The notes: generated from the letters alone by a model not told the origin. 58,892 nucleotides of DNA from a virus (IMGVR_UViG_3300032320_002219:1-58892), one strand, 5' to 3'; shown: positions 1 through 58,400, counted from the stretch's first letter. Numbers and translations: made by a program.

Positions 1-68
1 CAGGGAGGGCGGCGCACCAGGGAGGGCGGCGCACCAGGGAGGGCGGCGCACCAGGGAGGACGGCGCAC
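1..68. repeat. 17-bp tandem array CAGGGAGG(G/A)CGGCGCAC x4, continuing from the contig end
   Basis: Units at 1-17, 18-34, 35-51 (G variant) and 52-68 (A variant); the same unit occurs at 58811-58892. Confidence 0.97.
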
Positions 69-71
69 CCA

Positions 72-125
72 GGCGGCAGGCGGCGGGCGGCGGGCGGCGG
101 GCGGCGGGCGGCGGCGGGCGGCGGG
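72..125 (+). repeat. 7-bp GGCGGCG tandem repeat with six GGG tracts
   Basis: GGG at 85, 92, 99, 106, 116 and 123. Confidence 0.9.
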
Positions 126-166
126 CCGGCCACCGCCGGGGCTGTCCATACATAGACCCCGCTGTG

Positions 167-276
167 GCAAAGACCCCTCCATCGCAAAGACCCGTCCGAT
201 GCAAAGACCCGTCCGATGCAAAGACCCGTCCGATGCAAAGACCCGTCCGATGCAAAGACCCGTCCGATGCAAAGAC
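167..276. repeat. 17-bp tandem array GCAAAGACCCGTCCGAT
   Basis: Five perfect copies at 184-268, a degenerate copy at 167-183 and a partial copy at 269-276. Confidence 0.97.
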
Positions 277-287
277 TTTTTTCGCTT

Positions 288-303
288 TGGCACGACTTGT
301 GCA
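288..303 (+). promoter_or_regulatory. putative sigma54 (-24/-12) promoter
   Basis: TGGCACG-ACTT-GTGCA (GG-N10-GC), 45 bp before the first plus-strand ATG. Confidence 0.7.
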
Positions 304-347
304 GTAGGTGAAATCCAGACAAGGCAAACGAAACAGGAGACAAACCC

Positions 348-737
348 ATGACCAAGCGAACCATCGAAGTAGACGACGTTCTTCCCGGCTGTGTCGATAC
401 GGCCGTCGAGGAAACCGAGCGCATGCTGCGGGAGTATCTGGAAGAAAACCCCGACCTCGACGAGCCGCCGTGCCTGTCGAACGACCTCGATTACGACGGC
501 AGGTTCCACGAAATGATCGACGGGTGCGTCCCTATCTGGACTAACAAAATTGAGGCGGCGTGGTTCCTCCACGGTAGCGACCTTGAACAAGCCTACGAGA
601 ACGCCGGAGTTGGGGAGAACCCGCGAGAGAACAGCGGCATGGCGGCTATCTACTACTACATCTATGAGCGGGCCGCTGACTGGTACACGAAAAACGTGGA
701 CCGGATTTGGGAAGAAACCAAGGGGGGCAAGGAATGA
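348..737 (+). CDS. hypothetical acidic protein
   Basis: RBS CAGGAG; 129 aa; stop overlaps the next start. Confidence 0.8.
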   Translation: MTKRTIEVDDVLPGCVDTAVEETERMLREYLEENPDLDEPPCLSNDLDYDGRFHEMIDGCVPIWTNKIEAAWFLHGSDLEQAYENAGVGENPRENSGMAAIYYYIYERAADWYTKNVDRIWEETKGGKE

Positions 738-1165
738 CCACGGCAATTTTCAATGGGGAGCCGCTGCAGCTCGACGCCAGGCGCATTTCCCTTGTGTTCA
801 ACAAGACGCACGGGGAATCGTCTTACCCGAACGCGGTAAACATAACGCCGCAAAGTTCGCTGGAGTATTTCCGTGGGATGGGCGAACCGTCCGACGTTGC
901 CGAGGCGTTCTTTCGTGCAATCGTCCACGACTGGGAAGGCCCGGTGAGCCGCGAAGCGCTGGTGAATTCGCAGCCATGCTTTCGCCGGCTTGCGGCCATG
1001 CTTGAGCAGTCGGTGCGGCTGATGATCGAGGGCCGGCAGTTTGCCTGGAAGTATCCAGAGGACGGGCTGCACCCAATGTATCAAGGCAATATCGCGGACG
1101 TAGTTATCGCTATGGGTGACGCCGGAAAACTCCGCTCGGTCCTGGCACGGCACTTGCAGAAGTAA
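734..1165 (+). CDS. hypothetical protein
   Basis: ATGA overlap with the upstream gene. Confidence 0.75.
   Translation: MTTAIFNGEPLQLDARRISLVFNKTHGESSYPNAVNITPQSSLEYFRGMGEPSDVAEAFFRAIVHDWEGPVSREALVNSQPCFRRLAAMLEQSVRLMIEGRQFAWKYPEDGLHPMYQGNIADVVIAMGDAGKLRSVLARHLQK
1143..1158 (+). promoter_or_regulatory. sigma54-type promoter
   Basis: TGGCACG-GCAC-TTGCA, perfect consensus, followed by AAGGAG RBS and ATG at 1189. Confidence 0.8.
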
Positions 1166-1188
1166 ACAAACAGAAGGAGACCCGAGCG

Positions 1189-1380
1189 ATGAAAACAGAA
1201 GAACAAGAATCTCTAAAAAAGTGCTGCCTGTGCGGCTTCAGTATTCAGCCGGTTGGCGACTGGGTGCACGGGCACAACGCCGAGCCGGCCGCGGACGGTC
1301 GGTGCTGCGACGAGTGCAATTCCTGCGTGGTGATTCCGCTGAGACTTTTGGAACTCATGAAAAGGAGACCCGAACGATGA
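1189..1380 (+). CDS. small Cys-rich (Zn-finger-like) protein
   Basis: CCLC...CCDEC; strong RBS. Confidence 0.75.
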   Translation: MKTEEQESLKKCCLCGFSIQPVGDWVHGHNAEPAADGRCCDECNSCVVIPLRLLELMKRRPER

Positions 1381-1565
1381 AAGCGGAACAGGAAATGCTC
1401 GAAGCGCTAAGGCGCGCCGAGAACGCGCTTCGATGGGCTGCGCGGAGGTGCGTCGGTCGAGTACGGAAAGATGTTGTCGGCGGTTTCCTTCACGAGGCAA
1501 ACGTCGTTCGTGATGCCATCGAAAGGGCTGAACACGCAGCAAAGGCTACAGGGGAACACTCATGA
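1377..1565 (+). CDS. hypothetical protein
   Basis: RBS AAGGAGACCCGAACG-ATG; ATGA overlaps on both sides. Confidence 0.7.
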   Translation: MKAEQEMLEALRRAENALRWAARRCVGRVRKDVVGGFLHEANVVRDAIERAEHAAKATGEHS

Positions 1566-2257
1566 GAGTTCTTGATTTGTATTGCGGTGCAGGGATGGCC
1601 GGCGAAGGCTACAGGCGGGCACTATTCGACGTTGTTGGCTGGGACATTCGCCCGCAGCCAAACTACCCGTACGAGTTTCATCAAGGCAGTGCGCTCGACG
1701 TTCTCCGCGACCGCGACTACCTGCGGCAGTTCGATCTGATTCATGCGTCCCCTCCGTGCCAAGCACACACAAGGGCGAAGCACCTGCGAGATGCGCAGGG
1801 CGGCAAAAGCAAGTACGGCGATCTTCTGACGCCGACGCTCGAACTACTCCGCGACTGCGGCGTGCCTTGGGTTGTGGAAAACGTGCAGGGAGCCCCCGGC
1901 ATGGAAAATGCTGTGATTGAGTGTGGGTCGGCGTATGGATTGAAAGTTCGCCGACACCGATACTTCCTGGCGTCGTTTCCGCTGGTCGGGTCTGGGTGCA
2001 AACACAAAGAGCAGGGCAAACCAATCGGCGTGTATCACGCGATGAACGACACCTGCAAAGGCGTATGCAAAAAAACCGGAAAGTTGGTGATTGGCGGATC
2101 GACGGCGCGAACGGTCGAGGAGGGTCGTTTTGCTATGGGCGTCGATCGTCCGATTTCGTGGAATGAACTGAAAGAAGGTTTCCCGCCGGCGTACACGGCG
2201 CACGTTGGAGCGCAGGCTGCAGCGTGGATTCAACAACAACTGGAGAAAGTGGCATGA
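1562..2257 (+). CDS. DNA cytosine-C5 methyltransferase
   Basis: Motif I VLDLYCGAG, catalytic SPPCQ, ENV and RRHR motifs. Confidence 0.9.
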   Translation: MRVLDLYCGAGMAGEGYRRALFDVVGWDIRPQPNYPYEFHQGSALDVLRDRDYLRQFDLIHASPPCQAHTRAKHLRDAQGGKSKYGDLLTPTLELLRDCGVPWVVENVQGAPGMENAVIECGSAYGLKVRRHRYFLASFPLVGSGCKHKEQGKPIGVYHAMNDTCKGVCKKTGKLVIGGSTARTVEEGRFAMGVDRPISWNELKEGFPPAYTAHVGAQAAAWIQQQLEKVA

Positions 2258-2493
2258 CATTCGCAGAGTGGGTCAAGACAGGACAGCGAACCACTGACGT
2301 TTCTGTTCTTGAGGAATCATTTGGTTATCCGGTGCTCAACGCTGTGGCTGCGATCCTCTACAAGCCTGGGGCAATCGCTGAACTGCCAAATGGAGAGTTC
2401 TTCACGCATATCGGCCGCAGCGAATACACCGGAACGAAGGAAGAAATCGAGAAAGTTTTGTGGGAAGAATACGCAGAAATGGAGACAAAGTAA
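2254..2493 (+). CDS. hypothetical protein
   Basis: Coupled start/stop with neighbours. Confidence 0.7.
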   Translation: MTFAEWVKTGQRTTDVSVLEESFGYPVLNAVAAILYKPGAIAELPNGEFFTHIGRSEYTGTKEEIEKVLWEEYAEMETK

Positions 2494-2798
2494 TGAGCGG
2501 ACACACGCCAGGGCCGTGGTGGATTGAAAACGAAAAAGACAGCGAAGGCCCGCGGGAAATAAGCGACTGCTACGGGAGGACCGCGGAGGTGTACGGAGAA
2601 GGCAGCGAGGGGGACGCAAACGCCCGTCTGATTGCTGCCGCCCCGGAGTTGCTGGCTGCCCTGAAGGAGGCAGCGCAGGAACTATCGCTGGTATGCAAGT
2701 GGTTTGATCATCCTGAGCAAACCACAACCGAGACTTTGAGGCGGGCGACATCCGCAATCGCCAAGGCCGAAGGATCGGCACGGAACTTGCAGAAGTAA
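2493..2798 (+). CDS. phage hypothetical protein (HTPGPW...NARLIAAAPELL family)
   Basis: Motifs widespread among phage early proteins. Confidence 0.8.
   Translation: MSGHTPGPWWIENEKDSEGPREISDCYGRTAEVYGEGSEGDANARLIAAAPELLAALKEAAQELSLVCKWFDHPEQTTTETLRRATSAIAKAEGSARNLQK
2776..2791 (+). promoter_or_regulatory. sigma54-type promoter
   Basis: CGGCACG-GAAC-TTGCA within a 53-bp near-duplicate of 1143-1195. Confidence 0.8.
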
Positions 2799-2821
2799 GC
2801 AAACACAAGGAGACCCGAACG

Positions 2822-3154
2822 ATGAAAATAGAACCAGTCAGCATTGAGGGGGACGGCAGCAGCCTGTGGTGCGATGACTCCAGCGGCAGGTATGTCGTGA
2901 CGCACATGGAAACCAGAAATCTTTGCAACACGAAAGACCCCTACGAACTTGTTCTGCATGGCCCCAACACAAAATGGGGGCACTACACGGACAACGCAAT
3001 CGAAGAAAACGTGAACCGCGTGTTCGTTCCTCTTTTGCAGAAGGCATATCCCAACCACTCCATCGCAAGGGTCACCTGGAGCGAACAGGGAATGCAGCCA
3101 GACAACGGATGGAGTTTTGACATTCACGGGGAAGAAAAGGAGGCCCGTTCATGA
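2822..3154 (+). CDS. hypothetical protein
   Basis: Strong RBS; 110 aa. Confidence 0.75.
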   Translation: MKIEPVSIEGDGSSLWCDDSSGRYVVTHMETRNLCNTKDPYELVLHGPNTKWGHYTDNAIEENVNRVFVPLLQKAYPNHSIARVTWSEQGMQPDNGWSFDIHGEEKEARS

Positions 3155-3420
3155 CAACAAACGGATTTACGCAGGACATTATCACCATGTTTCAGTCTGC
3201 CCCGATGGGGCGAACTCTTGCCCGCAAGGCCATCGGCCTTATGGAGCAGGAGGGCGGCGACATTGCGGAAACCATGAAGCAGGGAGTCATTCAGGCGCTG
3301 TCACCTGAGATGCAAGGGGCAAACCCGCTGGTAGCGCAAGTCGTGGCACGCGCCTTGCTTGAGCACGTTGATTGGCAGCAGGTGGTGCTATCGGTCGCAA
3401 CCGACGAATCGAGGAACTGA
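3151..3420 (+). CDS. hypothetical protein
   Basis: RBS AAGGAGG; coupled to neighbours. Confidence 0.75.
   Translation: MTTNGFTQDIITMFQSAPMGRTLARKAIGLMEQEGGDIAETMKQGVIQALSPEMQGANPLVAQVVARALLEHVDWQQVVLSVATDESRN
3344..3359 (+). promoter_or_regulatory. sigma54-type promoter
   Basis: TGGCACG-CGCC-TTGCT, about 60 bp upstream of the glycosylase ATG. Confidence 0.7.
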
Positions 3421-3890
3421 TGCAAACCTTCCTCCCCTACGACAATTTCATCGACTCTGCCATGTGCCTCGACTACAAGCGGCTCGGAAAACAGCGGGTC
3501 GAGTGCAAGCAGATTTTGCAGGCGCTCGGCGTGCCGGTTGGTGGCCCGCTGCGTGATAAGCCAAGCAGCTGGCGCAATCACCCTGCGACCCGTATGTGGC
3601 AAGGCTACGAGTATTCGCTGTGCCTGTATGCGATTACAGTCTGCGCTGAGTGGCGGCGTCGAGGCTACAGAGACACACTACGCGATCAGTTTTCCTACGC
3701 TGCAGCGTGCATCATCGAGCAGGGGCGCGACGATTGCGGCAGGCCACCTTGGCTCGGGTGCGAGGAATTCCATTCCTCACACAGAAGCAACCTGCTTCGC
3801 AAACTTCCGTCGCACTACGGTCAGTTCGGGTGGAGCGAGCCAGACAATCTTGAGTATGTCTGGCCGATCGGCACGGCAGTTGCACTTTAG
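3420..3890 (+). CDS. pyrimidine-dimer DNA glycosylase-like protein (MSMEG_6728 / DenV-related family)
   Basis: MQTFLPY...LDYKRLGKQRVE...NHPATRMW...SHRSNLLRK...YVWP. Confidence 0.85.
   Translation: MQTFLPYDNFIDSAMCLDYKRLGKQRVECKQILQALGVPVGGPLRDKPSSWRNHPATRMWQGYEYSLCLYAITVCAEWRRRGYRDTLRDQFSYAAACIIEQGRDDCGRPPWLGCEEFHSSHRSNLLRKLPSHYGQFGWSEPDNLEYVWPIGTAVAL
3869..3884 (+). promoter_or_regulatory. sigma54-type promoter
   Basis: CGGCACG-GCAG-TTGCA, followed by AAGGAG and ATG at 3912. Confidence 0.8.
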
Positions 3891-3911
3891 TCAAACCGAA
3901 AGGAGATCGAG

Positions 3912-4106
3912 ATGAGAAAGCAAGCACCAGTGTTTCTGACAAAGCGAGAAGCCAACGCAGTGATGAGCGCCTTCGACGAACTGTTCAGAGTCTTCCCAGG
4001 TGGGCCTGACTGTCCGAAGTGCGCGAAGTCGCTGTGGAGGGCAATCGAAAAGATCGACGCCGCGTTCGGCATGAACATTCTTCAAGAGGAGGTCAGCGAT
4101 GAGTGA
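3912..4106 (+). CDS. small hypothetical protein (CPKC)
   Basis: RBS; 64 aa. Confidence 0.7.
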   Translation: MRKQAPVFLTKREANAVMSAFDELFRVFPGGPDCPKCAKSLWRAIEKIDAAFGMNILQEEVSDE

Positions 4107-4545
4107 TTTTATTTCCAACTACGCTTCCTACGTTGAGAAGCAACGCAAAGAAGCCGCAGTGTCACGCAAGAATCTCATTCGTGCCCTGCGAGACGCTGGC
4201 GTCACGAAGGTGACGGTTGAGTTCGACGGGTCGGGGGACAGCGGGAATATCTACGAGCCCGTGTTTGACCCGCCCGTGAAAAACATCATGGGCCGCGAGG
4301 TTCCTGACACGCAGTTCGAGGCAAGCGACTGGTCCGACGGCACGCTGAAAAAAGTTGTCCGCAACAAGTCAATCCGAGACCTGCTCGATGACGTCTGCTA
4401 CGGCATCCTCGGCGCAGAACACGGGGGCTGGGAGATAAACGAGGGCTCGTTCGGGACGTTTCATATCAACGTCGAAAAGGACGCCGTTGCCCTGGACTAC
4501 AACCACCGTCGTGAGTGCTACGACTCGTACGAGGAGGAGTATTGA
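4099..4545 (+). CDS. DUF6878-like protein
   Basis: VEFDGSGDSG and GWEINEGSFGT motifs; RBS GAGGAGG. Confidence 0.75.
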   Translation: MSDFISNYASYVEKQRKEAAVSRKNLIRALRDAGVTKVTVEFDGSGDSGNIYEPVFDPPVKNIMGREVPDTQFEASDWSDGTLKKVVRNKSIRDLLDDVCYGILGAEHGGWEINEGSFGTFHINVEKDAVALDYNHRRECYDSYEEEY

Positions 4546-4546
4546 A

Positions 4547-4912
4547 ATGGCCCACTCGTACCACCATGCGGTCAGTTCGCAGAAAAAGTGGGGCGGCTCA
4601 GTCGAGGACTACCAGCCGATTCACGACTGGTTCGATGAGTCCAAGATGATGATGGCCGACTTCCGGCATCGGGCGCTGCGGCATCACGCGGAGGGGATTT
4701 TTATGGCCGAGCGATTGTTCGGCCACACGATCACCAACTCGGATGGTCGCGTCGTGCCGGTGCGGTTTGTCGGGGAGCAGCACGTTCGCGAGGACTGCGG
4801 CTTCATTCCGTCGATGCAGGACTGGCTGTGCCATATCCGGCCGCAGAAGTGGATGGGCGAGCCGCCAGTGAAGTTGGAAGAAGTTCTGGAACCATCAGTG
4901 GTGGAGGTATGA
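4547..4912 (+). CDS. DUF6915-like protein
   Basis: HHAVSS..KWGG..EDY.PIHDWFD...RHRALRHH..GIF...EQHVRED. Confidence 0.8.
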   Translation: MAHSYHHAVSSQKKWGGSVEDYQPIHDWFDESKMMMADFRHRALRHHAEGIFMAERLFGHTITNSDGRVVPVRFVGEQHVREDCGFIPSMQDWLCHIRPQKWMGEPPVKLEEVLEPSVVEV

Positions 4913-5008
4913 CCATGCAGACCGAACTTGATGACGCGATGGCGGAATTGGAACGGCTTTTGCATGACGCAGAAGAAGCGTACGAGTTGATGGTTTGGGA
5001 GCAAGAAA

Positions 5009-5320
5009 ATGAAGACAGAGATTCTGACTGAATACAGAGTGTCGCCGCGTGTCGTGCTCCGAACGGGCGACAAGTTTCGCGTCACGGGCGGGCCGTACGT
5101 CCGTGGCGGTCAGGGCGAGAAAATCGCAATGGCATACCGTGGGGTTTGCACGTTCGTCAGGGCCGAAAAGATCGGGGCGAGGGTGCATATCTACGCGGTC
5201 AATAAAGATGGATCAGTCCTGCTGCACGTTGCCGGCCGTCGCAGGAACGAGTACCTGCCGGATTTAGTTTGCCGCCCCTATAAAATCAAAGGGCGGGTCA
5301 GGAAGGGAGTTCGTAAATGA
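5009..5320 (+). CDS. hypothetical basic protein
   Basis: ORF in an operon-like array. Confidence 0.65.
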   Translation: MKTEILTEYRVSPRVVLRTGDKFRVTGGPYVRGGQGEKIAMAYRGVCTFVRAEKIGARVHIYAVNKDGSVLLHVAGRRRNEYLPDLVCRPYKIKGRVRKGVRK

Positions 5321-5571
5321 AGAAGAACGCAGAAAACCAAAAGCCATTCACGACGTTCGTGCGCGAGTACATGGCAGGCTTCGTGGCCGGCGAAAGTGCC
5401 GACGAGATTGCGAGGCGGCTGGAGACCACTCCGGCAACGATGCTGGTGTATGCGGCCAGCCTTCGGAAGCGCGGCGTAGCGCTGCCGAAACTGAACGAGC
5501 GATTCGACGCCGGCCACTTGAACGGCATGATCCGGTCCGTGAAAAGAAAGGCGAAGCAATGGGCGCTGTAA
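5317..5571 (+). CDS. putative HTH DNA-binding protein
   Basis: SADEIARRLETTPATM pattern. Confidence 0.6.
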   Translation: MKKNAENQKPFTTFVREYMAGFVAGESADEIARRLETTPATMLVYAASLRKRGVALPKLNERFDAGHLNGMIRSVKRKAKQWAL

Positions 5572-5834
5572 AAGAAGCGATGATGGACTGCCATGAGGCT
5601 GGATTTGTGTGGGTAGACGATGATTTCGCTATCCCGTTCGTCGAAAACCCAGAGGCACGCGACTTGCTTGCTGGTATGCCGCTCAAGCACACTATCACCA
5701 ATCGCTGGGGTGAGCCGGTCGAGTGTCCGGTCATCCCAGTGACGGTGGCCGTGCGCCTTGAGAAGTTGTTTCCAGAAGAAGTGAAAGACACGATCGGGTG
5801 GCAACTCGACATGATTGCGGAGACCCGTCTATGA
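5559..5834 (+). CDS. hypothetical protein
   Basis: Operon position. Confidence 0.6.
   Translation: MGAVKEAMMDCHEAGFVWVDDDFAIPFVENPEARDLLAGMPLKHTITNRWGEPVECPVIPVTVAVRLEKLFPEEVKDTIGWQLDMIAETRL
5653..5668 (+). promoter_or_regulatory. possible sigma54-type promoter
   Basis: AGGCACG-CGAC-TTGCT, co-oriented with the genes. Confidence 0.5.
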
Positions 5835-5978
5835 CAAACAGAATCCAGAAATACGACGCGGCGGCATGGCTGGCGTTTCTCGTCGAGCAGCGGCTCATCG
5901 AGCACGGAGAGCCAGTGGTGGCAGCCCACGAAGCGATGCTGTGCAGTCCAGAAATATGTGAATTTGGGGAGGCCAGCA

Positions 5979-6425
5979 GTGAGCAAGAAGAATGAACTGG
6001 TCGATGCCGACTACATTGCAGACCTCCACGGCGTAAGCCGAAGGACAGTGGTGCGGGCGGCGATCAAAACCAACGCAGCGACGATGCTTGGGAACAAGTA
6101 TTTCGTGAAGCCTGACGTTCTTGGCAAAGACCCGTCCGTGGAAAAAGCGGCGAAGGCTTTGTCTGGTGCGATCACGCTGCAGGAGGCGGCGAATCGGCTC
6201 GGGTGCTCTCGATCCACCATCTTGCGGGTGGTTGAGCGCACGAGCCTCGGCATCAAAGTTGGCGGGCGGCGATATGTTCTTGAGCGTCACCTAGATGACA
6301 TCAAGTTCAACATCTTGAAGCCCGGTTTGCCGTTACGATTCCACGACCCTGCGGAGATGAAGGCCCATGCGTCACGAATGGCTCGAAAACTGTGGCGAGT
6401 GCGGAAATCGGCTAAAGCGGTATGA
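5979..6425 (+). CDS. tandem HTH (excisionase/HTH_17-like) DNA-binding protein
   Basis: IADLHGVSRRTV and ITLQEAANRLGCSRSTI; RBS GGAGG before GTG. Confidence 0.75.
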   Translation: MSKKNELVDADYIADLHGVSRRTVVRAAIKTNAATMLGNKYFVKPDVLGKDPSVEKAAKALSGAITLQEAANRLGCSRSTILRVVERTSLGIKVGGRRYVLERHLDDIKFNILKPGLPLRFHDPAEMKAHASRMARKLWRVRKSAKAV

Positions 6426-6527
6426 CGTACGCGCCTGGCTGGAGCTGCTCGTCGATATGAAGGTTGTCCGCGAGGACAGCCTGGGCGAAGTCGCCCACTC
6501 AATCCGTCGCCGGTTCTTGGACGGCTA

Positions 6528-6806
6528 CTATCCGTGGCAAGTCAAGGACGAATGACGCTTTGAGTGGCACGAACGGCAGAGCACGCGCAGGTTGTGGAGT
6601 TCGTCCGTCCCGTGCGGTTTCTCGATGATATGGTCAACGTGCGCCTCGCGGCCAGACACGATGGCCTTGCAGATTCGGCACTGCGAGCAATCGCGTGCGA
6701 TCACGGCAAGCCTAGTCCTGCGCCACGCAGCGGAGCAGTAGCCTCGCTGCGCGGCGTTTGGCCTAGTCTTTGTCGCCGGCCTGTAAGTCTTGAGCCTCTT
6801 TGGCAC
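6528..6806 (-). CDS. HNH endonuclease (HK97 gp74-like)
   Basis: RGY..W...R...RD...CRIC...VDHII...NL..LC..CH. Confidence 0.9.
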   Translation of the reverse strand: MPKRLKTYRPATKTRPNAAQRGYCSAAWRRTRLAVIARDCSQCRICKAIVSGREAHVDHIIEKPHGTDELHNLRVLCRSCHSKRHSSLTCHG

Positions 6807-7104
6807 GCTTGCTCCACCCAGTCATAAGAACACGATGCGAATCGCGCTCCAGCCACCAGTCGATAACGATGCGAACCAGGGCGTTGATGAACGCCGACAG
6901 CAGGATGATCGCGATCACGCTGCCGTACTGATTCCTGGCACGGATAGTCAGGCGAGCACGCAGAACGTCTTCAATCTTGTCGGAATCGCAGCCGGTTGGC
7001 CAATCGAGTACCGCGGACTCAGTGAGCTGGTCGCGGAGTTTGGGGTGCATGGCAAGCCGAAGACCGCCGGAGCGGCGAACTCGCGCCTTCAGCGGCTCGT
7101 ACAT
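6763..7104 (-). CDS. membrane protein
   Basis: Hydrophobic segment YGSVIAIILLSAFINALVRIVIDWW. Confidence 0.65.
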   Translation of the reverse strand: MYEPLKARVRRSGGLRLAMHPKLRDQLTESAVLDWPTGCDSDKIEDVLRARLTIRARNQYGSVIAIILLSAFINALVRIVIDWWLERDSHRVLMTGWSKRAKEAQDLQAGDKD

Positions 7105-7367
7105 TTTCCATCCTTGCAGACAGCAGACTTGGCCTTGCACGCGCAGGTGTCGGGGCATCGGCAATTCACGACCGAGATGCCGTCGCCACTCTTTTCCTTC
7201 CCTGTGCCGTTGCACTTGCAGCCCTCGACGCAGCCGGTTTTTGGCTGCGGGGGTTCGTGGCAAAGCAAGGAGTAGTGGCCGGTGACGGAAACCCACGGCT
7301 GCAGGTTCGGCGTCGTGTCGCAACCGTGGAAAGCAAGCACCGTGGAAAGCAGCACAGCTTTATACAT
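7089..7367 (-). CDS. Cys-rich putative lipoprotein
   Basis: Signal-like MYKAVLLSTVLAFHGC; multiple CxC motifs. Confidence 0.6.
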   Translation of the reverse strand: MYKAVLLSTVLAFHGCDTTPNLQPWVSVTGHYSLLCHEPPQPKTGCVEGCKCNGTGKEKSGDGISVVNCRCPDTCACKAKSAVCKDGKCTSR

Positions 7368-8358
7368 TTCCAGTGGCCCCGTACGTGGGAAGAGTCCGAA
7401 GCGGCCAGCCGGCAACGCTCGACAGAGCGATGCAGTTGCACCTGTCAATCGTGCTGGCCAACGCCCAAAATGCGCCGCTCGGGAGTTCGTAGTTCGTGCC
7501 GAGAACGCGACGAGGGCCGGAGTTCCAGTTCCCCCATTGGTTGAGCCACGCCACAAGCGGCTGGCCGTACTTCTTTACGGTCTCGGGCCGGTCGTCGTAG
7601 CCGATGAAACTTTGGGCGTGCGCCCAAGTGCCTCGCTGCTGCGAAAAACCGTCTTCGTTTCTCGAGTCCGAGAAACCCATGCTCGAGCAGTTGAAGACGC
7701 CGTAGCCGGCCGCGAGGAAATCTCGTACCTGCTCCCGTCCACGCAAAACAGTCGCGGTTCGAGCTCGGTGCTGCTTGGACTCGGCCAGCCATTTGTCGCC
7801 TGGGCGTTTCGATCCGCCGATCTTGATAGTGCGGTCGGTGTACTTCGTGAGGTCGATCGAAAGGTCCGGGTAGTTCTTCCGAATGAGGAAGCCCTTTTCG
7901 GTGGCCACCTGGGCGGCCTCGGAGCACACCCAGCCGTCTTGGTCGAAGCCCCTCCACGCCCAAAGAGACTCCGACGCAACCGGAATGTTCTTGATGCCCT
8001 CTTTCGAAAGCTCGGGAACGCCCTCGATTTTTCCAGTCTCTTCGTCGGGCTTTCCAGAGACAATCTCGCAGCACGTAGACGTAAGGAGGCAGTTTGCCGC
8101 TGCTTTCGCCACGCAGTCGCCCCAAAGTTGGGGCGGCCCTGGCCAGCAGCCTGGGAAAACGTGCTCGACATGAAGCCAGAGCATCGTGAGTTTTCCGGCC
8201 CCGGCCCCGGCCAGTTCCCATTCGTGCGCAACCTCTGCGCCGATCGGATTGCCGCCGGCACGAACGATGCTGTCTTCAAACAGTTCGTCTGCGCGGGGGT
8301 CTTTCCGGCAGCCGACGAGGCCGGAGTCGTAGGCTACTTTCGGGTCGAAGTCATTCAT
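7360..8358 (-). CDS. papain-like (C1 family) cysteine peptidase
   Basis: Q-LWGD-C, HAQSFIGYDD and LNQWG match the papain Cys/His/Asn motifs. Confidence 0.8.
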   Translation of the reverse strand: MNDFDPKVAYDSGLVGCRKDPRADELFEDSIVRAGGNPIGAEVAHEWELAGAGAGKLTMLWLHVEHVFPGCWPGPPQLWGDCVAKAAANCLLTSTCCEIVSGKPDEETGKIEGVPELSKEGIKNIPVASESLWAWRGFDQDGWVCSEAAQVATEKGFLIRKNYPDLSIDLTKYTDRTIKIGGSKRPGDKWLAESKQHRARTATVLRGREQVRDFLAAGYGVFNCSSMGFSDSRNEDGFSQQRGTWAHAQSFIGYDDRPETVKKYGQPLVAWLNQWGNWNSGPRRVLGTNYELPSGAFWALASTIDRCNCIALSSVAGWPLRTLPTYGATGNV

Positions 8359-9688: not shown

Positions 9689-10016
9689 GATTGTGTCCTC
9701 CGGTAGCCTCTTTCATTCTACCGAAGTCCAAGCCACCGATGCGGGCTTCCCGCTCTGCTTGACTCCACGATTGGCGTATCGCTGCACACGCCAGCCGTAT
9801 CTCGGAGGGCGTCGGAATGTAGTCGTTCGACTCAACTCGCTCTGGGAGTTGCATTTCGCTGGCGATCTCGAGCACCATCTCAGAAGTGAAGTCCACGACA
9901 TCGCAGTCGCCAAAATCGACAGACGAGATCGAAAGCTCTTCGGCGACCTCTTCAATCGTCAGACCTCCGCGCCACAAACGCCGGACGGCCCGCTTCTGGT
10001 TTGGGGTAAGATTCAT
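9651..10016 (-). CDS. HTH-containing protein
   Basis: LTPNQKRAVRRLWRGGLTIEEVAEELSIS. Confidence 0.6.
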   Translation of the reverse strand: MNLTPNQKRAVRRLWRGGLTIEEVAEELSISSVDFGDCDVVDFTSEMVLEIASEMQLPERVESNDYIPTPSEIRLACAAIRQSWSQAEREARIGGLDFGRMKEATGGHNHAGGSAPNDCRP

Positions 10017-10867
10017 TGCCAGATTGCGACATACCTGCAGCCGGGATTGAGATAAAGCTGATACCCGGCGCGCTTCAGGCTGTGGTGAAACGGAACGTGC
10101 TCGCAATCTTCACCGCCGTACTCACCAGATAGGTAAGCGCGAGTCGAGTAGACGCACAGGCCGCCGAACGCCGAGTTCATCGGGATTGGTGGCGAGCCAA
10201 CCGGCGGCAGGAGCGTTGAGAACCATGCGAAGCCGATCTCATCTTTGCGGTCATGCCACCAATTCAACCTTGCGGCCCACGAGTCGTAGCCGGCAACGTC
10301 CTTGCCGCCCTCGGCGTTCGTCACGCCGTAGAGACTAAAACTCGCCATTGCGCCCGGCGCGGCGACAGCCGGCTGCGACTGAAGCGATCCGAGCCATCCG
10401 ATGCTGTTGAAGACGCCGTCTACGCTGAACCCGTGGTGTGGGTCCATGTCGAGCACGATTGTCCAGGCAGTGCCAAATGCGTTTTGTCGAACCCAGCTCT
10501 GGCACTTGGCCCTGCAGGCCGCGAGCCTTCTGGTCCGCTCTTTCTCGAAACCACGGCCGTCGCAAACGCCAAGCGTTTCGTGCTCGATCGTGGCCCACTG
10601 CCGTGTGGCGGCGTAAGCGTCAAGAACGCTGGCCGTCTGGTCTGTTGAGTCGTTTTCGTAGACGTACAGGCTGCAGCTGCGAAAGCCGCGCTGCACTTCG
10701 TCTATAAGTTCCAGCGTATTCGGGAGATATGGCATCGCGTTTCTGGCGATAGCCACGACAGAAGCATCGAGGTTTTTGGCAATCTCGCGACCGACGCGAA
10801 CTTTCGTCGCGTAGTCTTCGGCGCACTCCTCGGCGAGCGGCCAGATTTGTTCAGGAGTTTGCGGCAC
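10013..10867 (-). CDS. GT-A glycosyltransferase (Cap59/mannosyltransferase-like)
   Basis: IARN, YENDS.D.T, R..RLA.CR, VLDMD, SAFGG...Y, CEHV.FH, LNP. Confidence 0.8.
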   Translation of the reverse strand: MPQTPEQIWPLAEECAEDYATKVRVGREIAKNLDASVVAIARNAMPYLPNTLELIDEVQRGFRSCSLYVYENDSTDQTASVLDAYAATRQWATIEHETLGVCDGRGFEKERTRRLAACRAKCQSWVRQNAFGTAWTIVLDMDPHHGFSVDGVFNSIGWLGSLQSQPAVAAPGAMASFSLYGVTNAEGGKDVAGYDSWAARLNWWHDRKDEIGFAWFSTLLPPVGSPPIPMNSAFGGLCVYSTRAYLSGEYGGEDCEHVPFHHSLKRAGYQLYLNPGCRYVAIWQ

Positions 10868-11483
10868 GATCCCACTCCTGAATGGCCCCGAGCCGGTCTG
10901 TGATGATGCCGCAGGCGTGAAGCCAGTTTTGCTTCGTTCCTGGGGGTGAGTACCGGCAGAAGTTGAAGCTCTCGTCGAGCCAGTGTGTCTTTTGGTACAG
11001 CAACGTGTCGTGAACGTGCCTGTTGCCGTCTGGGCCAAACTCGAAGCCCATCATGGCGTGAATCGCTGCTTGCTCCCACCACGGGTGGTTGACGAGGTGG
11101 TCGCTCATGGCCGCTGCCATGAGATACATGAGCATCGGCCGCCTCACTACCCAGACGCCTGCGTTCGGGACGTCGCCTTCGTTCGTGTGATGCCGCACCA
11201 TCGCCTGCCAAGCGTCGTCTGGCACACCGGCCATGATGTCGTCAATGAAGTTCAAAACGTAGACGTCGGCATCGACCCAGATGACCGTATCGGCCTGCGT
11301 TAGGCCGTGGGCGATGAATGTGAGCTTCTTCCACGATGACGGCCTCTTGTTTCCGCTTGGCATATCGTCGTGATAAAAGCCCATGCCGTGCTTCTCGGCG
11401 TACGCTTGAAGCCTCGGCCATGTGATCTGCCTGACGGCGAGAAACTCATCGCCCTCGCTGCCGGTGATGATGAGTGGTTTCAT
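10851..11483 (-). CDS. glycosyltransferase (GT34, GMA12/MNN10-like)
   Basis: W.K, WVDAD, NAGVWVVR and WEQAAI motifs. Confidence 0.8.
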   Translation of the reverse strand: MKPLIITGSEGDEFLAVRQITWPRLQAYAEKHGMGFYHDDMPSGNKRPSSWKKLTFIAHGLTQADTVIWVDADVYVLNFIDDIMAGVPDDAWQAMVRHHTNEGDVPNAGVWVVRRPMLMYLMAAAMSDHLVNHPWWEQAAIHAMMGFEFGPDGNRHVHDTLLYQKTHWLDESFNFCRYSPPGTKQNWLHACGIITDRLGAIQEWDRAANS

Positions 11484-13626: not shown

Positions 13627-14338
13627 GCAACCTCCGTTTTGCAATCTCTGCGTACTCGGGATTCAGTTCGATCCCAACGCCGATGCGGTCCAGTTCTTGT
13701 GCTACTGCAAGTGTCGTGCCGGAGCCCGCAAAGGGATCGAGCACCGTGTCGCCTGTGTTGCTCGACACCCCGATGATCCGACGTACGAGTTCAAGAGGGA
13801 GTTGCGTAGGGACACCCTTGATGCGCTCCTTGAACGTGCCGCAGACTCTGCTGATCTTCCAGACGTCTCCCATGATCTTGCCGCCTGCCGCGGCGCGCTT
13901 GTCGCCGTAGATTTCCTGCCTTGCCGACGGGATCGTCACGGCCTCGCGGTTGAAAGTGAAGTTCTTTTCGTCCTTGACGGCGTAGTAGATCGGCCGGCTC
14001 GTCCTCGAGAACTTCCGCTGGCACTGGACCCCGAAAGTTTCGTGCCAAGTGATCCGGTTGCGCACAGCAAATCCGCACCGCTGCAGGGCGATGTCGATGT
14101 CAGCGCCGTGCTCCTGGCCGCTGACGATCCAGATCGAGCCGTGCGGCTTGAGTGTCCTGTAGCACCAGCCGATCCAGCGTTCGCACCACAGGTCGTAGTC
14201 AAGCCGTCGGTCGGCCTTGCTTCCGGCCCCGTAGTCGATGCCGATGTTGTACGGCGGGTCGGCCACGATGAGGTCAGCGCTTTCGCGCTCCATCTCGGAC
14301 AAGACGGCACAGCAGTCACCAGTGATGATTCTGGTCAT
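13601..14338 (-). CDS. DNA N6-adenine/N4-cytosine methyltransferase (beta class)
   Basis: DPPY followed by VLDPFAGSGTT. Confidence 0.93.
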   Translation of the reverse strand: MTRIITGDCCAVLSEMERESADLIVADPPYNIGIDYGAGSKADRRLDYDLWCERWIGWCYRTLKPHGSIWIVSGQEHGADIDIALQRCGFAVRNRITWHETFGVQCQRKFSRTSRPIYYAVKDEKNFTFNREAVTIPSARQEIYGDKRAAAGGKIMGDVWKISRVCGTFKERIKGVPTQLPLELVRRIIGVSSNTGDTVLDPFAGSGTTLAVAQELDRIGVGIELNPEYAEIAKRRLHETEDCSR

Positions 14339-15109: not shown

Positions 15110-16746
15110 AGCATCATCCTGTAGTCGCATGGTTCCGAGCACACAATCAGCTTCTTTCTAGCCCTCGTCACGCCGACGTATTCGACGCGCCGCTCCTCGT
15201 CGTACTGCTCTGGGTCAAGTTGCTGCGACTCATGAACCCGCCGGCTCGTGGTCGTGGCAAGGCAAACCGTATCGGCCTCCATGCCCTTTGCTGCATGAAC
15301 CGTGCCAATTCGTATCTGTGGCTTGGTAGCCAATTCGGGGCCGAACTTCACGGCCGCGAGCCGCCAGCGATCGCCGCCGGTAACGAGCTCCGACCACGTG
15401 CCGTCATTGAGCCGCTGAATAAAGTACGGCGTCATGCCGGTTTGCTCGAGCATCGACGGGTAGACGCGATCCCATTTGTCGACCGTTGAGTCCCGCTCCC
15501 ACGAAGTCTTGACGCCCCTTGCCATGAGCGCCCCGTCTGCCCCACGAACTGGAATCTCGGCAACAGCGCAGGCGAAGTCGACGCCATTGACAGGCTTGCC
15601 GTGCTCCAAATCCCAGAGGGCTTTCATGCCCCTCAAGATCGCCGTGTTCTCCTTGGCCTTGAGTTTCGCAAACGGAATGCCCTTTTTCTTGAGGGTGTCG
15701 GCCCAGTCGTCGATAGTGTAGTTGCAGCGGGCGATGATGAGAGTCGACTCCAGGGGGTCGAGCCTCGGGACAATCGACGACGGGCCCCCCCCAGCGCGGA
15801 CTTCGCCCTCGTGGTCGGCCGGTGCTACGCCCCTGTCCCAGTAGCCTTTTCGCATCCTGCGGAGGCACCGCTCACCGAGCTCAAGGATGGGCTTTGGGCA
15901 GCGCCATGACTTCTGCATGACGGTCTGCTTGTTTGCCTCCCACCCCATGAAGTGCGAGGCATCGGAGCCGCCAAAACCGAAGACAGCCTGGAACGGGTCG
16001 CCGGCCAGATAAACCCACTTCACTTCGGGGCCATCCGCAAGCCGGCGGCAGACGAGGTCGACGAGCTTCGAGGCGTCCTGGGCTTCATCAAAAATCCAAG
16101 CCTGCACACCCTTTGGGTGCATACCCTCGGGGTCGACCGGATAGAAACCATCCGGCGTGAACTTGATCCCGACGTACCGAGACAGGAGGTCGGCGTAGTC
16201 GGATCGCTCTTCGAGGCGCTTGGCCTGCTCATATCGCTGAATGAACTGCTTGCACTCGGCAAACGTCGGCGGCGATTGCCCCGTGCGGGACATGCGCTTG
16301 ATCGTCTCGCAGAGCGGCTCAACCCGTGCCCGACTGAGTTCCCAGCAGTTGAGGGACGCAGCCGCAGCCGTGTCGCCTGCGTACATGGAGTACCCGCTGT
16401 CATCGTCCATGATGACTCGGACGTCCACCTTGAGGGCGTCAGCGATCCACCGCTGGTCAGCCTTCGAGTCTCCAATGAGCTGCCCCTTCTTGATGTCGAG
16501 CATCCGGTGGGCGACACCGTGGACGGTCTTGAACCACCCGTCCTTGGCCAGGACGTCTGGGGGAATCTCCCAAGAAGCCCCAGCCCTCGCCACGGCCTCG
16601 GCCCGAGCGGCCCGCGTGAAGCTGGCGAACCCGATCGCGAACGGGTCGCCGCCAAGGCCCGCCTTAGCCCCCTCCATGACCCTCAAAAGTTCCGTAGTCT
16701 TCCCAGACCCCGCAGCGCCAACCAGTCGAGCGACTTGCATGACCAC
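15106..16746 (-). CDS. UvrD/Rep-like SF1 helicase
   Basis: GAAGSGKTT, DEAQD, GDPFQ, SWRC, TVHAAKGME, YVGVTRA. Confidence 0.92.
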   Translation of the reverse strand: MVMQVARLVGAAGSGKTTELLRVMEGAKAGLGGDPFAIGFASFTRAARAEAVARAGASWEIPPDVLAKDGWFKTVHGVAHRMLDIKKGQLIGDSKADQRWIADALKVDVRVIMDDDSGYSMYAGDTAAAASLNCWELSRARVEPLCETIKRMSRTGQSPPTFAECKQFIQRYEQAKRLEERSDYADLLSRYVGIKFTPDGFYPVDPEGMHPKGVQAWIFDEAQDASKLVDLVCRRLADGPEVKWVYLAGDPFQAVFGFGGSDASHFMGWEANKQTVMQKSWRCPKPILELGERCLRRMRKGYWDRGVAPADHEGEVRAGGGPSSIVPRLDPLESTLIIARCNYTIDDWADTLKKKGIPFAKLKAKENTAILRGMKALWDLEHGKPVNGVDFACAVAEIPVRGADGALMARGVKTSWERDSTVDKWDRVYPSMLEQTGMTPYFIQRLNDGTWSELVTGGDRWRLAAVKFGPELATKPQIRIGTVHAAKGMEADTVCLATTTSRRVHESQQLDPEQYDEERRVEYVGVTRARKKLIVCSEPCDYRMML

Positions 16747-19551: not shown

Positions 19552-20001
19552 TCAGCCAACCGTGACATGACGCAATTTCATCTCCACGAACTCACCGACG
19601 AGGCCGCTGAATGGCGTCCCGTCGGAGAAGGGCCGGCCGGCTTCCCTTCCGGCCTCTTTTGCCCGCTCCACCAACCACGCCTTGAGCGTGGGTGTGGCCA
19701 CCGTCGTGATCGCATCCTCGATCCCGACGGCACGCGCTGCCTCCAGCACCGCGTCTCGCCGATCCTTCGGCACCGACAGGCGAAGGGCTTCTTCGACCCG
19801 CCAACTCCTCCCTGCGACTCGAACTCCGTCGAGCCGTTGTGTTTTGATTTCTTCCACCGCGAGACTCTCCAACTCAGCGCGTTGCCGCTGTAGTTCGTCG
19901 ACCTGTGCAGAAACCGTGCCAATCGTCTTGTCGAGTTCGGCAATCCGCTCAAGCAGCGCCGACAAGCCCGTGTGTTGTTCTGTATCCACTGATGATTGCA
20001 T
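19552..20001 (-). CDS. coiled-coil hypothetical protein
   Basis: Heptad N-terminus; operon position. Confidence 0.65.
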   Translation of the reverse strand: MQSSVDTEQHTGLSALLERIAELDKTIGTVSAQVDELQRQRAELESLAVEEIKTQRLDGVRVAGRSWRVEEALRLSVPKDRRDAVLEAARAVGIEDAITTVATPTLKAWLVERAKEAGREAGRPFSDGTPFSGLVGEFVEMKLRHVTVG

Positions 20002-21328
20002 CTATGACTTCCTTTCTCTCCGTCAGTGCCTTGTAGACTCCTCCGTCCACCGTCATGCCGCCGCCGACCGTGGCGACGAGCGAATAGAAATGCGTTGTCT
20101 TTGTTTGCCCTGGCCTGTGCAGCCGCGCGACGGCCTGCAGGTATTCGCTCAAACTGTGGCCAAGCGAATAGAAGACTCCGTACGACGCGCGGGTCAGGTC
20201 GATGCCAATGCCGCCGCTGGCTGTGTTCGCAACGAGGACGTTGGTTTTGCCGCTCTGCCAGTCGTCGAGTTCGTTCCTGCTGCCCGACAGTTCGCTCGCT
20301 GCTCGACCGGCCTTCTTGCACTCAGCGAGGATCGCCTCCATGTCGGCGCGGTACTTGCAGAACACTACCAGCGGTTCGTGCGGCGGTAGATCGTCCATGA
20401 TTTCTTTGAGCGCCGCCGCCTTGCTCGGCGTTTCGGTGAGTCGTGTGGCCTGACGGTTGCCGTCCTTGTGGACGCTTCCGCCGCAAACCTCGAGCAACCG
20501 GATCAGTTGCACGAGCACGTTCGCCGGAGTGACCTCTCCGTCGCCCACGACAGCGCAGAAATCTTTCTCGATTTCTCTGTAGAGCTTGGACTCCGTGCTG
20601 TTCAGTTCGACGTCAACTTGTTCGTGCATGATTGCTGGCAAATCCAAAACGTCTTCCGACCGACGATGGAATGTCGTTTCTGCAATCTTCGTGCCAAACT
20701 GCTCGGTGTTTCTGTAGCCAACCACCATGCCGGGTATCCGCGGGTTGGTGATTGCGTAGGTGCTTTTGAATGTCGTGTAGGACGTTCCAAAAGTCCTGCA
20801 CTCCGGTGATTCGATGGCCCTGTAGACGCCGTAGGCATCGAGCGGGGAGTGCGCCAGAAGCGTCCCAGACAGGCCGATGCGTCTGGCGGCTGGGTTTTTC
20901 TTGCCCATCCTGGCCGCCCAGCGGCTGGTGGTGCCGCTCGGAGCCTTGAGGCGGTGGCACTCGTCGTAGCAGAGTGCGTCCCAGGGGGTCTTTTCCAGTG
21001 TCGGCAGCCGCCACGCGGCCTCGTAGTTGACTACTACAACCAGCGGCGAGCTGTCAGCCAGAGCGGCCGCCAGCATCTTTTCCTTCTGCGCGGAGGTGCC
21101 CTTCGTCAGCAACAGCACTCGGTAGCCGTCCAGCCACAGGCCGGCCTGTTTCCCCCACGCCGGAACGACGGCCTTGGGGCAGCAGATCAATGCGCGCCTC
21201 GCGCCGCACTGCATCAGAACCTCGAGGAGGCAGCGGCTCTTCCCGGTGCCCATCCCCATATGCAGGATCGCACAGATGCGACCAAGCGCCCACTCGACAG
21301 CCTCTTGCTGATGCTTCCACATGCCCAT
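19949..21328 (-). CDS. SNF2-like SF2 helicase
   Basis: MGTGKS, DECH, LSGT, GIGIDL, QAVARLHRPGQ. Confidence 0.92.
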   Translation of the reverse strand: MGMWKHQQEAVEWALGRICAILHMGMGTGKSRCLLEVLMQCGARRALICCPKAVVPAWGKQAGLWLDGYRVLLLTKGTSAQKEKMLAAALADSSPLVVVVNYEAAWRLPTLEKTPWDALCYDECHRLKAPSGTTSRWAARMGKKNPAARRIGLSGTLLAHSPLDAYGVYRAIESPECRTFGTSYTTFKSTYAITNPRIPGMVVGYRNTEQFGTKIAETTFHRRSEDVLDLPAIMHEQVDVELNSTESKLYREIEKDFCAVVGDGEVTPANVLVQLIRLLEVCGGSVHKDGNRQATRLTETPSKAAALKEIMDDLPPHEPLVVFCKYRADMEAILAECKKAGRAASELSGSRNELDDWQSGKTNVLVANTASGGIGIDLTRASYGVFYSLGHSLSEYLQAVARLHRPGQTKTTHFYSLVATVGGGMTVDGGVYKALTERKEVIDAIISGYRTTHGLVGAA

Positions 21329-57378: not shown

Positions 57379-58059
57379 CTACTCAGCGGCAGCGACGGCG
57401 AGCGAGTCGAGCACGGCGCGCCAGTCGCGGCCGAAAACCGCCTGAGCGGCAATATCGTCGCCCACCTTGCCGCACAGGGCGGCGAACGCGAGCCACGAGC
57501 GGAGAGTGATACGCTCCCCGTCGGCGGCGCTCACCGTGCCACGGGCGGCATTTCTCAATCGCTCCGGCAGCGCTTCCAGCGCGGCCGGGTTGCAATCTTC
57601 AATCTCGACGCCGGCCGCGAAACGGTCGCGGAGCGCGGGAATCAAGTCTTCCGGCCGGCCATTCATCGTCGCCACGGCATGGAAGCCAGGGGCCGGCCGC
57701 ACGGTCTCACCCGACGGCAGCGTCACCCGGCACGATTCCGGGTTGTCGAGCGCGGCCAGCAGGAACGACAAAGTGTCGCCGCCCGCATGGTCTATCTCAT
57801 TGAGCACAACACGGCAGCCGCGCCGCATTGCCGACACTACGGGGCCATCCTGCCAGACGAATTCACCGCCACGGGGGTGATAGTGCCCACGGAGTTCGGC
57901 CGCAGGGGTTTCGGGGGTGAGCGTGATATTGAAAATATCACCACCACCGGACTGCGCCGCGTACGATTTCCCTGTGCCAGGGGGCCCGTAGAGCAGCGTG
58001 TTGCCCTCGCGAGCAGCCACAATCGTTTCCGCCACCTTCCAAAAGTCGATTTTCGCCAT
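57379..58059 (-). CDS. MoxR/CbbQ-type AAA+ ATPase
   Basis: GPPGTGKS, F.W.DGP, VLNEID, ATMN, ALRDRF. Confidence 0.9.
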   Translation of the reverse strand: MAKIDFWKVAETIVAAREGNTLLYGPPGTGKSYAAQSGGGDIFNITLTPETPAAELRGHYHPRGGEFVWQDGPVVSAMRRGCRVVLNEIDHAGGDTLSFLLAALDNPESCRVTLPSGETVRPAPGFHAVATMNGRPEDLIPALRDRFAAGVEIEDCNPAALEALPERLRNAARGTVSAADGERITLRSWLAFAALCGKVGDDIAAQAVFGRDWRAVLDSLAVAAAE

Positions 58060-58370: not shown

Positions 58371-58400
58371 ATTTTAGGCCAGCCGGTCAAGTCCCGTCAA
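58371..58400 (-). promoter_or_regulatory. sigma70-like promoter of the AAA/vWA operon
   Basis: TTGACG-N18-TAAAAT. Confidence 0.55.

Follow-up and report, generated by a model that had tools for sequence, protein, structure and literature searches.

Repeated candidate sigma-54 (-24/-12) promoters in a plus-strand gene block of an uncultivated freshwater phage and its relatives

The DNA analysed here, IMGVR_UViG_3300032320_002219, is the whole IMG/VR record of a phage of an uncultivated freshwater group (58,892 bp, referred to below in its full length as the window; completeness estimated by CheckV at 100%), and our subject is a 15-bp sequence that recurs in it and resembles the -24/-12 promoters of sigma-54 (RpoN). 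Both ends of the record run into one and the same 17-bp tandem repeat (1-69 and 58790-58892; unit GCACCAGGGAGGRCGGC, at least 10 copies), and for this reason the genome most likely is circular or circularly permuted, with the assembly broken within the array. According to our own gene calling, a block of 20 short genes occupies the plus strand from 348 to 6425, and nearly all genes outside this block are on the minus strand, the plus-strand exception being an integrase gene (22218-23096). The block encodes a C5-methylase-like protein, a DenV-like pyrimidine-dimer glycosylase, DUF6878 and DUF6915 proteins, a protein with two helix-turn-helix (HTH) units, and many small proteins without a family; in a comparison of block proteins with PHROGs one of ten was matched, by a family of unknown function. 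The block converges on the end of the replication operon. The original prediction for this DNA had called it an early block, a label for which neither its contents (genes for DNA modification and repair besides small unknown genes) nor its convergence on that operon gives support. The features discussed in this work are collected in Table 1, where P1 to P7 denote the putative promoters of the block.

Table 1. Sites, genes and repeats considered in the window (positions counted from its first base)
Feature	Position	Strand	Description
P1	289..303	+	Relaxed -24/-12 site GGCACGACTTGTGCA; predicted start ~314; ribosome-binding site, then ATG of first block gene at 348
P2	1144..1158	+	Strict site; overlaps last codons of upstream open reading frame (stop 1163-1165); predicted start ~1169; ATG 1189
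P3	2777..2791	+	Strict site, cassette of P2 type; upstream stop 2796-2798; predicted start ~2802; ATG 2822
P4	3345..3359	+	Strict site within gene 3151-3420; 60 nt to ATG of DenV-like glycosylase (3420)
P5	3870..3884	+	Strict site in last codons of DenV-like gene (stop 3888-3890); predicted start ~3895; ATG 3912
P6 (candidate)	4950..4964	+	GGAACGGCTTTTGCA, A for C at third base; 44 nt to ATG 5009
P7	5654..5668	+	Strict site within gene 5559-5834; 162 nt to next start (5831)
Helicase-internal site (20695)	20681..20695	-	Strict site GGCACGAAGATTGCA; within SNF2-helicase gene 19949-21322 (-)
Site 19920	19906..19920	-	GGCACGGTTTCTGCA; in coding sequence, 775 nt downstream of helicase-internal site
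Site 15306	15292..15306	-	GGCACGGTTCATGCA; within conserved UvrD-helicase motif
Site 13720	13706..13720	-	Strict site within N6/N4 DNA methylase gene, co-oriented, overlapping conserved GSGT motif
Cassette leader, ribosome-binding site and start	1171..1195	+	CAGAAGGAGACCCGAGCGATGAAAA; second copy 2804-2828; core of ribosome-binding site again at 1365
Direct-repeat array	167..276	+	6.5 units of 17 bp (GCAAAGACCCGTCCGAT); ends ~12 nt before P1
Sigma-70-like promoter	58371..58400	-	TTGACG-18-TAAAAT; divergent small operon
Small divergent operon	58.3-56.0 kb	-	53-aa open reading frame, MoxR-class AAA+ ATPase, vWA-like protein
AAA+ ATPase	57379..58059	-	MoxR/NorQ-class, sole AAA+ protein found; AAA_5 at 3.3e-20
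vWA-like protein	56046-57296	-	After ATPase gene; DxSxS motif (DYSGS)
Strong terminator	56030-55995	-	16-bp stem, after vWA-like gene
Structural genes	~55.4-24 kb	-	Small and large terminase, portal, protease, capsid, tail
Replication/modification operon	21.9-6.8 kb	-	SNF2 helicase, primase-polymerase, UvrD helicase, N6/N4 methylase, glycosyl- and methyltransferases

The strict form of the motif, GGCACG-N4-TTGC(A/T), occurs seven times in the window, with five copies on the plus strand (1144, 2777, 3345, 3870 and 5654) and two on the minus strand (13720 and 20695). By contrast, 0.16 copies are expected from dinucleotide shuffles (n=100, largest count 2) and 0.19 from codon-preserving shuffles (n=1000, largest count 2, none at 7); the latter comparison had been set beforehand as a check on the original prediction, and the count lies well beyond the shuffle expectation. 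A relaxed scan, in which GG and GC were fixed, called for a match at 11 or more of the 12 defined positions of TGGCACG-N4-TTGCW, which we take to be the -24/-12 consensus of sigma-54. This consensus agrees with a table of Salmonella sigma-54 sites in PMC3844500, and the strict pattern fits four of the 29 intergenic sites of that table (counted by eye). The scan returned 11 sites against 0.88 expected (500 codon-preserving shuffles, largest count 4): seven on the plus strand from 289 to 5654, with 289 and 4950 as the additions, and four on the minus strand (13720, 15306, 19920 and 20695). These sites match 11 or 12 of the 12 defined positions, the distance between GG and GC is exactly 10 nt, and all 11 follow the local direction of the genes. 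The structural region (about 24-55 kb) holds no site of either the strict or the relaxed kind, and the original prediction was right that no strict copy is found there. The enrichment is far beyond chance. A weight matrix built from 17 relatives' sites was dropped as overfitted (it missed the site at 3345 and ranked chance matches) and replaced by this counting of consensus matches.

The original prediction had listed six sites in the block, five strict and one relaxed, all on the coding strand. All six are real, and their strand is confirmed by the gene map, with the qualification that the coordinates given were one base low, the preceding T, C or A having been included. The list itself was incomplete: the two strict copies on the minus strand (13706-13720 and 20681-20695) and the P6 candidate had been missed. 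The battery also is not confined to the plus-strand block as had been proposed, conserved weaker sites being present in the replication operon as well.

With the DUF6915 protein as query, 56 viral loci were obtained. The strict motif is restricted to the seven nearest of these (L001-L005, L009 and L011), where it has 23 copies, all on the strand of the block; no strict copy occurs in the other 49 viral loci (630,656 bases) or in 80 loci from named bacterial genomes (935,892 bases). Six whole related records contain 5, 3, 5, 6, 2 and 6 strict copies (27 in total) and none of the reversed pattern that served as a control, conservation in related phage contigs having been one of the checks named with the original prediction. 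The metagenome fragments L143 and L144 are members of the clade too, and 14 relatives of the first block gene that stand farther off, most of them low in GC, lack a site.

Conservation was followed site by site. Every orthologue of the first block gene has a site upstream, the sequence of which differs among the genomes. The relaxed copy at P1 (288-302 as TGGCACGACTTGTGC) has GTGCA in place of TTGCA, and an exact copy of the 15-mer is located before the g2 orthologue of both L001 and L002; variants of the form GGCACA-N4-TTGCA precede this orthologue in L003, L004 and L009, and strict sites do so in L144 and L166. P4 is retained in L001 with one change in the spacer, and P7 is retained there at 15 of 15 nt. 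The P6 candidate, read with its preceding base, is TGGAACGGCTTTTGCA (4949-4964), and sites of the form TGGAAC-N5-TTGCA are found at or just past the DUF6915 gene in L002, L004 and L009. At 3870, six genomes are invariant at 14 of 15 nt, only the permitted A/T varying, with four of five third codon positions unchanged against 17 of 50 in the flanks; the genes downstream of this site differ among the genomes. The helicase-internal 15-mer (20695) is identical in the records of five relatives, and among five aligned genomes all 15 nt are invariant, including five of five third codon positions against 26 of 100 in the flanks. Site 19920 is invariant across six genomes at 11 of 11 core positions, one of four spacer positions and 110 of 240 flank positions, and these two fixed blocks with a free spacer between them fit the recognition of two separate elements. 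At 15306 nine of 11 core positions are invariant in five genomes (third positions two of four, against 24 of 80 in the flanks), and the position homologous to 13720 reads GGCACGGTTTGTGCA, a sigma-54-like variant, in three relatives.

Three of the relatives carry an extra strict site (L003 at 2943, L004 at 158 and L166 at 2973) before a GC-rich simple repeat of GCGGGC or GTGC units; transcription from it, if it is active, would cross the repeats and the 17-bp array in the direction of the first promoter. The window has a GC-rich repeat at 72-126 without such an extra site, and the contig break lies just upstream.

The position of the sites relative to genes is equally regular. The 15-mer and the ATG are separated by 44, 30, 30 and 27 nt at the sites 289, 1144, 2777 and 3870, with a ribosome-binding site (RBS) of the AGGAGA type in between, in agreement, within counting convention, with the 28-45 bp originally given for four sites. 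With the C of the GC taken as -12, transcription from these four sites is predicted to start where indicated in Table 1, in three cases just beyond the stop codon of the upstream gene. Among 28 strict sites in eight clade contigs (a count that excludes the fragment L143 as well as L005 and L011, which nearly duplicate L004 and L009), 22 are followed within 62 nt by an RBS and the start of an open reading frame (ORF) of at least 40 aa, as against 25% for positions drawn at random from those stretches. Six sites depart from this: three that precede simple repeats at the block's head (L003, L004 and L166), the sites 5654 and L001:4663 (162 nt), and L001:2103 (71 nt).

The RBS and start region itself is repeated. 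The sequence AAGGAGACCCGARCGATGAAA serves three genes in the window (1173-1195, 1361-1383 and 2806-2828) as well as genes in L001, L004, L009 and L166, and the first codons (M-K-...) belong to this repeated DNA. When six junctions from five contigs are aligned, unrelated upstream sequence gives way to the invariant GGCACG..TTGCA, followed by a variable stretch of 7-45 nt and by the conserved leader, RBS and start (CAAACACAAGGAGACCCGARCGATGAAAA); in these five contigs the cassette stands before unrelated genes. An exact copy of the extended cassette (GGCACGGNACTTGCAGAAGTAA) was not found elsewhere in IMG/VR. The motif encodes ..A-R-x-L-Q-K-stop at 1144 and 2777 and, in a different frame, G-T-A-V-A-L-stop at 3870; the ORFs upstream of P2 and P3 give no alignment at E<=100 and are not homologous. 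Because the motif is used in two reading frames, at the ends of non-homologous ORFs and before unrelated genes, it is a DNA signal and not a protein motif. The whole looks like a portable expression cassette into which the upstream ORFs read and in which they end.

The sequence properties of sigma-54 promoters, namely consensus, enrichment, co-orientation, position relative to RBS and ATG, and conservation, are all present, and we consider it probable that the recurring 15-mers serve as -24/-12 promoters for host RNA polymerase carrying sigma-54. The closed complex formed by the sigma-54 holoenzyme is inactive unless remodelled by an AAA+ bacterial enhancer-binding protein (bEBP), which usually acts from an upstream enhancer 80-150 bp away. 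On our interpretation P1 to P7 would split the 20 small genes of the block into short, overlapping units with leaders of 17-50 nt and a strong RBS, transcription starting about 12 nt past the GC and just beyond the upstream stop; the portable cassette, to which several of the sites belong, would then join the -24/-12 element to a short leader, to AAGGAGACCCGARCG and to ATGAAA. The host holoenzyme would wait at these sites in the closed complex until opened by a signal-responsive host enhancer-binding ATPase. Since the phage encodes no bEBP, the block should be tightly off until the host activator is switched on, and since a shared upstream enhancer is missing besides, the activator would be a host protein, acting either from solution or through an enhancer that is not recognisable here. 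Activation without a nearby enhancer is plausible because, according to passages of PMC3844500 and PMC4591121, an AAA+ domain can activate sigma-54 without binding DNA, and the AAA+ domain of DctD alone activates diverse Salmonella sigma-54 promoters (PMC3844500). The conserved sites 20695 and 19920 in the replication operon (minus strand) probably are bound by the holoenzyme too, and may be internal promoters or binding sites with another regulatory role. Binding of the holoenzyme, the start sites, the role of a host protein as activator and any connection with the state of the host are inferred from the sequence; that a host activator gates expression is a reasonable assumption, and the original interpretation as a whole is partly supported.

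Several observations weigh against this interpretation. The phage encodes no bEBP, and none had been visible in the original prediction: PF00158 (Sigma54_activat) gives 0 matches at E<=10, and a GAFTGA-type motif (G[AS][FY]TGA) is absent from all six frames of the window. The regions upstream of the sites share no k-mer or palindrome, the best candidate being one GC-rich 9-mer in three of eight regions, and the customary enhancer arrangement is therefore not seen. The sites at 5654, 20695 and 19920 are unusual for simple promoters in that the nearest obvious start downstream is 150-750 nt away. Sites 13720 and 15306, both of doubtful function, overlap conserved protein motifs and may be by-products of coding, and 13720 is degraded in the nearest relative. 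Finally, part of the conservation is driven by protein sequence, because most of the sites overlap coding sequence.

As to other machinery that could read the block, sigma-70-like sites are absent from positions 1-7200 (0 against 2.0 expected); besides the one before the small divergent operon (Table 1), such a site heads the replication operon, in the divergent gap beside the integrase gene. The phage gave no match to Sigma70_r2, and none at E<=1 to the T7-type RNA polymerase family PF00940, the latter being a weak negative, as its control matched in no genome. The last protein of the block (5979-6425, plus strand), the only DNA-binding protein in it, has two HTH units (HTH_17, E 1.8e-9); a match of Sigma54_DBD to its HTH stays below the cut-off (10.6 bits, E 0.012) and probably reflects generic HTH likeness.

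The AAA+ ATPase of the small divergent operon deserves consideration here. In a profile search its best solved relatives are midasin, NorQ and CbbQ, with no bEBP among the 60 listed; its predicted structure has a mean pLDDT (predicted local distance difference test score) of 73, and its sequence has neither GAFTGA nor PF00158. The protein encoded next to it carries a DxSxS motif, which we take to be typical of vWA partners. Identity of the ATPase/vWA pair in clade members is 50-79%; in other phages with DUF6915 the ATPase is 36-39% and the vWA-like protein 27-40% identical, and ATPase homologues occur in five loci that lack the motif. Given the MoxR-class relatives and the homologues in motif-free loci, the ATPase is not a bEBP and not specific to the clade. 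We think it quite unlikely that the sigma-54 holoenzyme is opened by a phage factor of a new kind, be it the ATPase/vWA pair or a small block protein without a family, for which the 17-bp array abutting the first promoter could be the loading site. If true, such a factor would be the first activator of the sigma-54 holoenzyme outside the bEBP family.

The array before P1 contains a core, AAGACCCGTCC, in five exact copies and one near copy at 170-265, and related repeats adjoin the first promoter in L003, L004, L144 and L166. It is too near P1 to be a classical enhancer, and an operator would be an equally good reading. Two more exact copies of AAGACCCGTCC lie outside the array, at 6127-6137 (plus strand) in the gene for the two-HTH protein and at 19255-19265 (minus strand) in gene 18742-19515; with at most one mismatch there are nine matches against 1.12 expected, and the core may be an operator for a phage DNA-binding protein. 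A palindrome near two of the sites, CCAGAC-N10-GTCTGG, was rejected as not recurrent (one match against 0.22 expected).

Sigma-54 or its holoenzyme might bind these sites with a main role other than initiation, either as a titrating sink while the phage DNA replicates or as a roadblock and source of interference inside operons. Three to five sites deep within genes and without a nearby start would suit such a role, as would the helicase-internal site that is kept at synonymous positions without an obvious downstream gene; neither an activator nor an enhancer was found, and a section of PMC3844500 discusses intragenic sigma-54 binding in Salmonella with possible roles other than that of a promoter. 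Titration, however, would not predict the co-orientation of 11 out of 11 sites, the spacing of 18-55 nt to an RBS and ATG at 22 out of 28, or a block devoid of any other promoter type. It is not needed for explaining the data, and we regard a main role as sink or roadblock as unlikely.

That the likeness to sigma-54 sites is coincidental, the motif being bound, as operator or promoter, by a DNA-binding protein of the phage or by a sigma-like phage factor that has escaped recognition, appears improbable to us. The battery is limited to one narrow phage clade, many proteins of the block belong to no known family, and the block ends in the two-HTH protein with its weak Sigma54_DBD match, all of which would accord with a private factor of the phage; yet a chance match at 11 or 12 of 12 positions, with exact spacing and at many independent sites, is very unlikely, two conserved blocks around a free 4-nt spacer fit -24/-12 recognition, and a gene for a sigma-70-family protein or an RNA polymerase was not detected (with the reservation already made for the polymerase control). 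The 15-mers and their leader-RBS cassette might also be recombination linkers for the exchange of modules among mosaic phages, given that the cassette is located at junctions of unrelated genes, that the gene content of the block is mosaic among the relatives, and that upstream ORFs end within the cassette. This would leave the exact sigma-54 consensus, the intragenic sites under synonymous constraint and the fixed orientation unexplained, and we hold it to be very improbable as an explanation of the motif; it is, moreover, compatible with promoter function, as promoter cassettes can become crossover points as a by-product.

Some further features of the phage may be recorded. Facing the block, the last gene of the replication operon (7360-8358, minus strand) encodes a Cys- and Trp-rich protein of 332 aa that is 65-95% identical in all clade members and belongs to no Pfam or PHROG family. 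The same operon includes two glycosyltransferase-like genes and a Methyltransf_24 gene (10013-12046, minus strand), and genes for a dNMP kinase and a dCMP deaminase are found near the tail genes (26713-27722, minus strand); together with the two DNA methylases these genes hint at DNA hypermodification or at modification of surface sugars. Two large proteins of 1750 and 1148 aa have no Pfam family, and no tRNA genes were found in the record. Three different arrays share the 17-bp period, one at the contig ends, one at 167-276 and one at 55595-55896 (about 13 copies, between the terminator of the vWA-like gene and the small terminase gene), and these could be iterons, partition sites or packaging sites.

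Regarding its kinship, the neighbours of the capsid protein in Atlas are viral. The portal protein is at most 43% identical to those of isolated phages (25 best matches) and at most 41% identical across 401 genomes from the order of one Burkholderiales metagenome-assembled genome; portal homologues of up to 91% identity come from metagenome sources only. The nearest genome-borne homologues of block proteins are almost all in records of Pseudomonadota and Acidobacteriota, and of five bacterial genomes that carry the nearest genome-borne DUF6915 homologues, four score above the cut-off for Sigma54_DBD (rpoN), which indirectly supports the presence of rpoN in the host. In an unrelated large phage contig, L214 (record G411, 118,946 bp, GC 44%), TTGGCACGG-N3-TTGCA occurs at 275-289 and 1762-1776, both sites, which lie in AT-rich intergenic DNA at one of the contig's ends, being followed by a GC-rich hairpin and then by ATTATATCATA. 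Record G411 has no strict copies beyond those two, and L214 may represent a second, independent use of sigma-54-type promoters by a phage.

Pseudomonas phage YuA is the only documented case of sigma-54 use by a phage that we found in the literature, although others may exist in print. Its dependence on sigma-54 was reportedly shown with an rpoN mutant in the original YuA paper. Passages of PMC5053324 and PMC10914365 describe the development of YuA as having a strict need for the host's sigma-54, the former calling such transcription rare, as did the original prediction, and the latter reporting that a sigma-54-like YuA promoter was found again by 5'-end sequencing. The GenBank record of YuA lists three '-24/-12' promoters (at 38.4, 40.9 and 47.2 kb) with high reporter activity, in the region for particle formation and lysis. 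As points of likeness to the window phage, YuA (Yuavirus, Pseudomonas aeruginosa) is a siphovirus of about 58.7 kb and has an integrase-like gene, and among the features overlapping its first 50 kb no bEBP is annotated, just as none was found in the window. The differences are considerable: the YuA sites lie in structural and lysis genes, whereas those of the window lie in the accessory block and the replication operon, with none at 24-55 kb; the first 50 kb of YuA contain 0 copies of GGCACG-N4-TTGCW or GGCAC-N5-TTGC, as opposed to seven strict copies in the window; and YuA also uses sigma-70 promoters and a private repeat promoter motif. The first 8 kb of the window do not match YuA at the nucleotide level, and YuA is not among the 25 best portal matches. 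The window's clade is unrelated to YuA, and shares with it neither the Yuavirus kinship nor the location of the sites in a late region.

If the sigma-54 interpretation holds, expression of such a phage block would be conditional on the signalling state of the host, and not only on a repressor of the phage's own. The clade would offer a cleaner system than YuA, whose sites are poor in comparison with the consensus, as it combines consensus sites, a portable cassette and at least nine related contigs with the lack of a phage activator; it could show which host activator a phage heeds, and whether synonymously constrained intragenic sites act as promoters. The cassette would be a compact and presumably tightly off expression module, with a possible use in orthogonal sigma-54 circuits.

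The sigma-54 regulon of Salmonella Typhimurium LT2 and E. coli shares with the window the bipartite element and the many intragenic sites that are co-oriented with genes; 58% of Salmonella sigma-54 binding sites are given as intragenic in a passage of PMC3844500, and its site table includes a GTGCA variant at glmZ, as in P1. These regulons, however, have about 70 sites per 4.9-Mb chromosome, and the window has 7-11 in 59 kb, clustered and without an adjoining activator gene. Promoter batteries built on a repeated motif, as in T7-like phages and YuA, resemble the arrangement in the window in that a conserved, short, co-oriented motif stands before successive groups of genes, with short leaders; those batteries need a phage polymerase or a phage cofactor, whereas the motif of the window is the consensus of the host sigma-54, and no gene for such a polymerase (a weak negative, as noted above) or sigma factor was detected. 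The use of sigma-54 by phages is rare yet documented, and to it the window's clade adds candidate sites that are numerous and of consensus grade.

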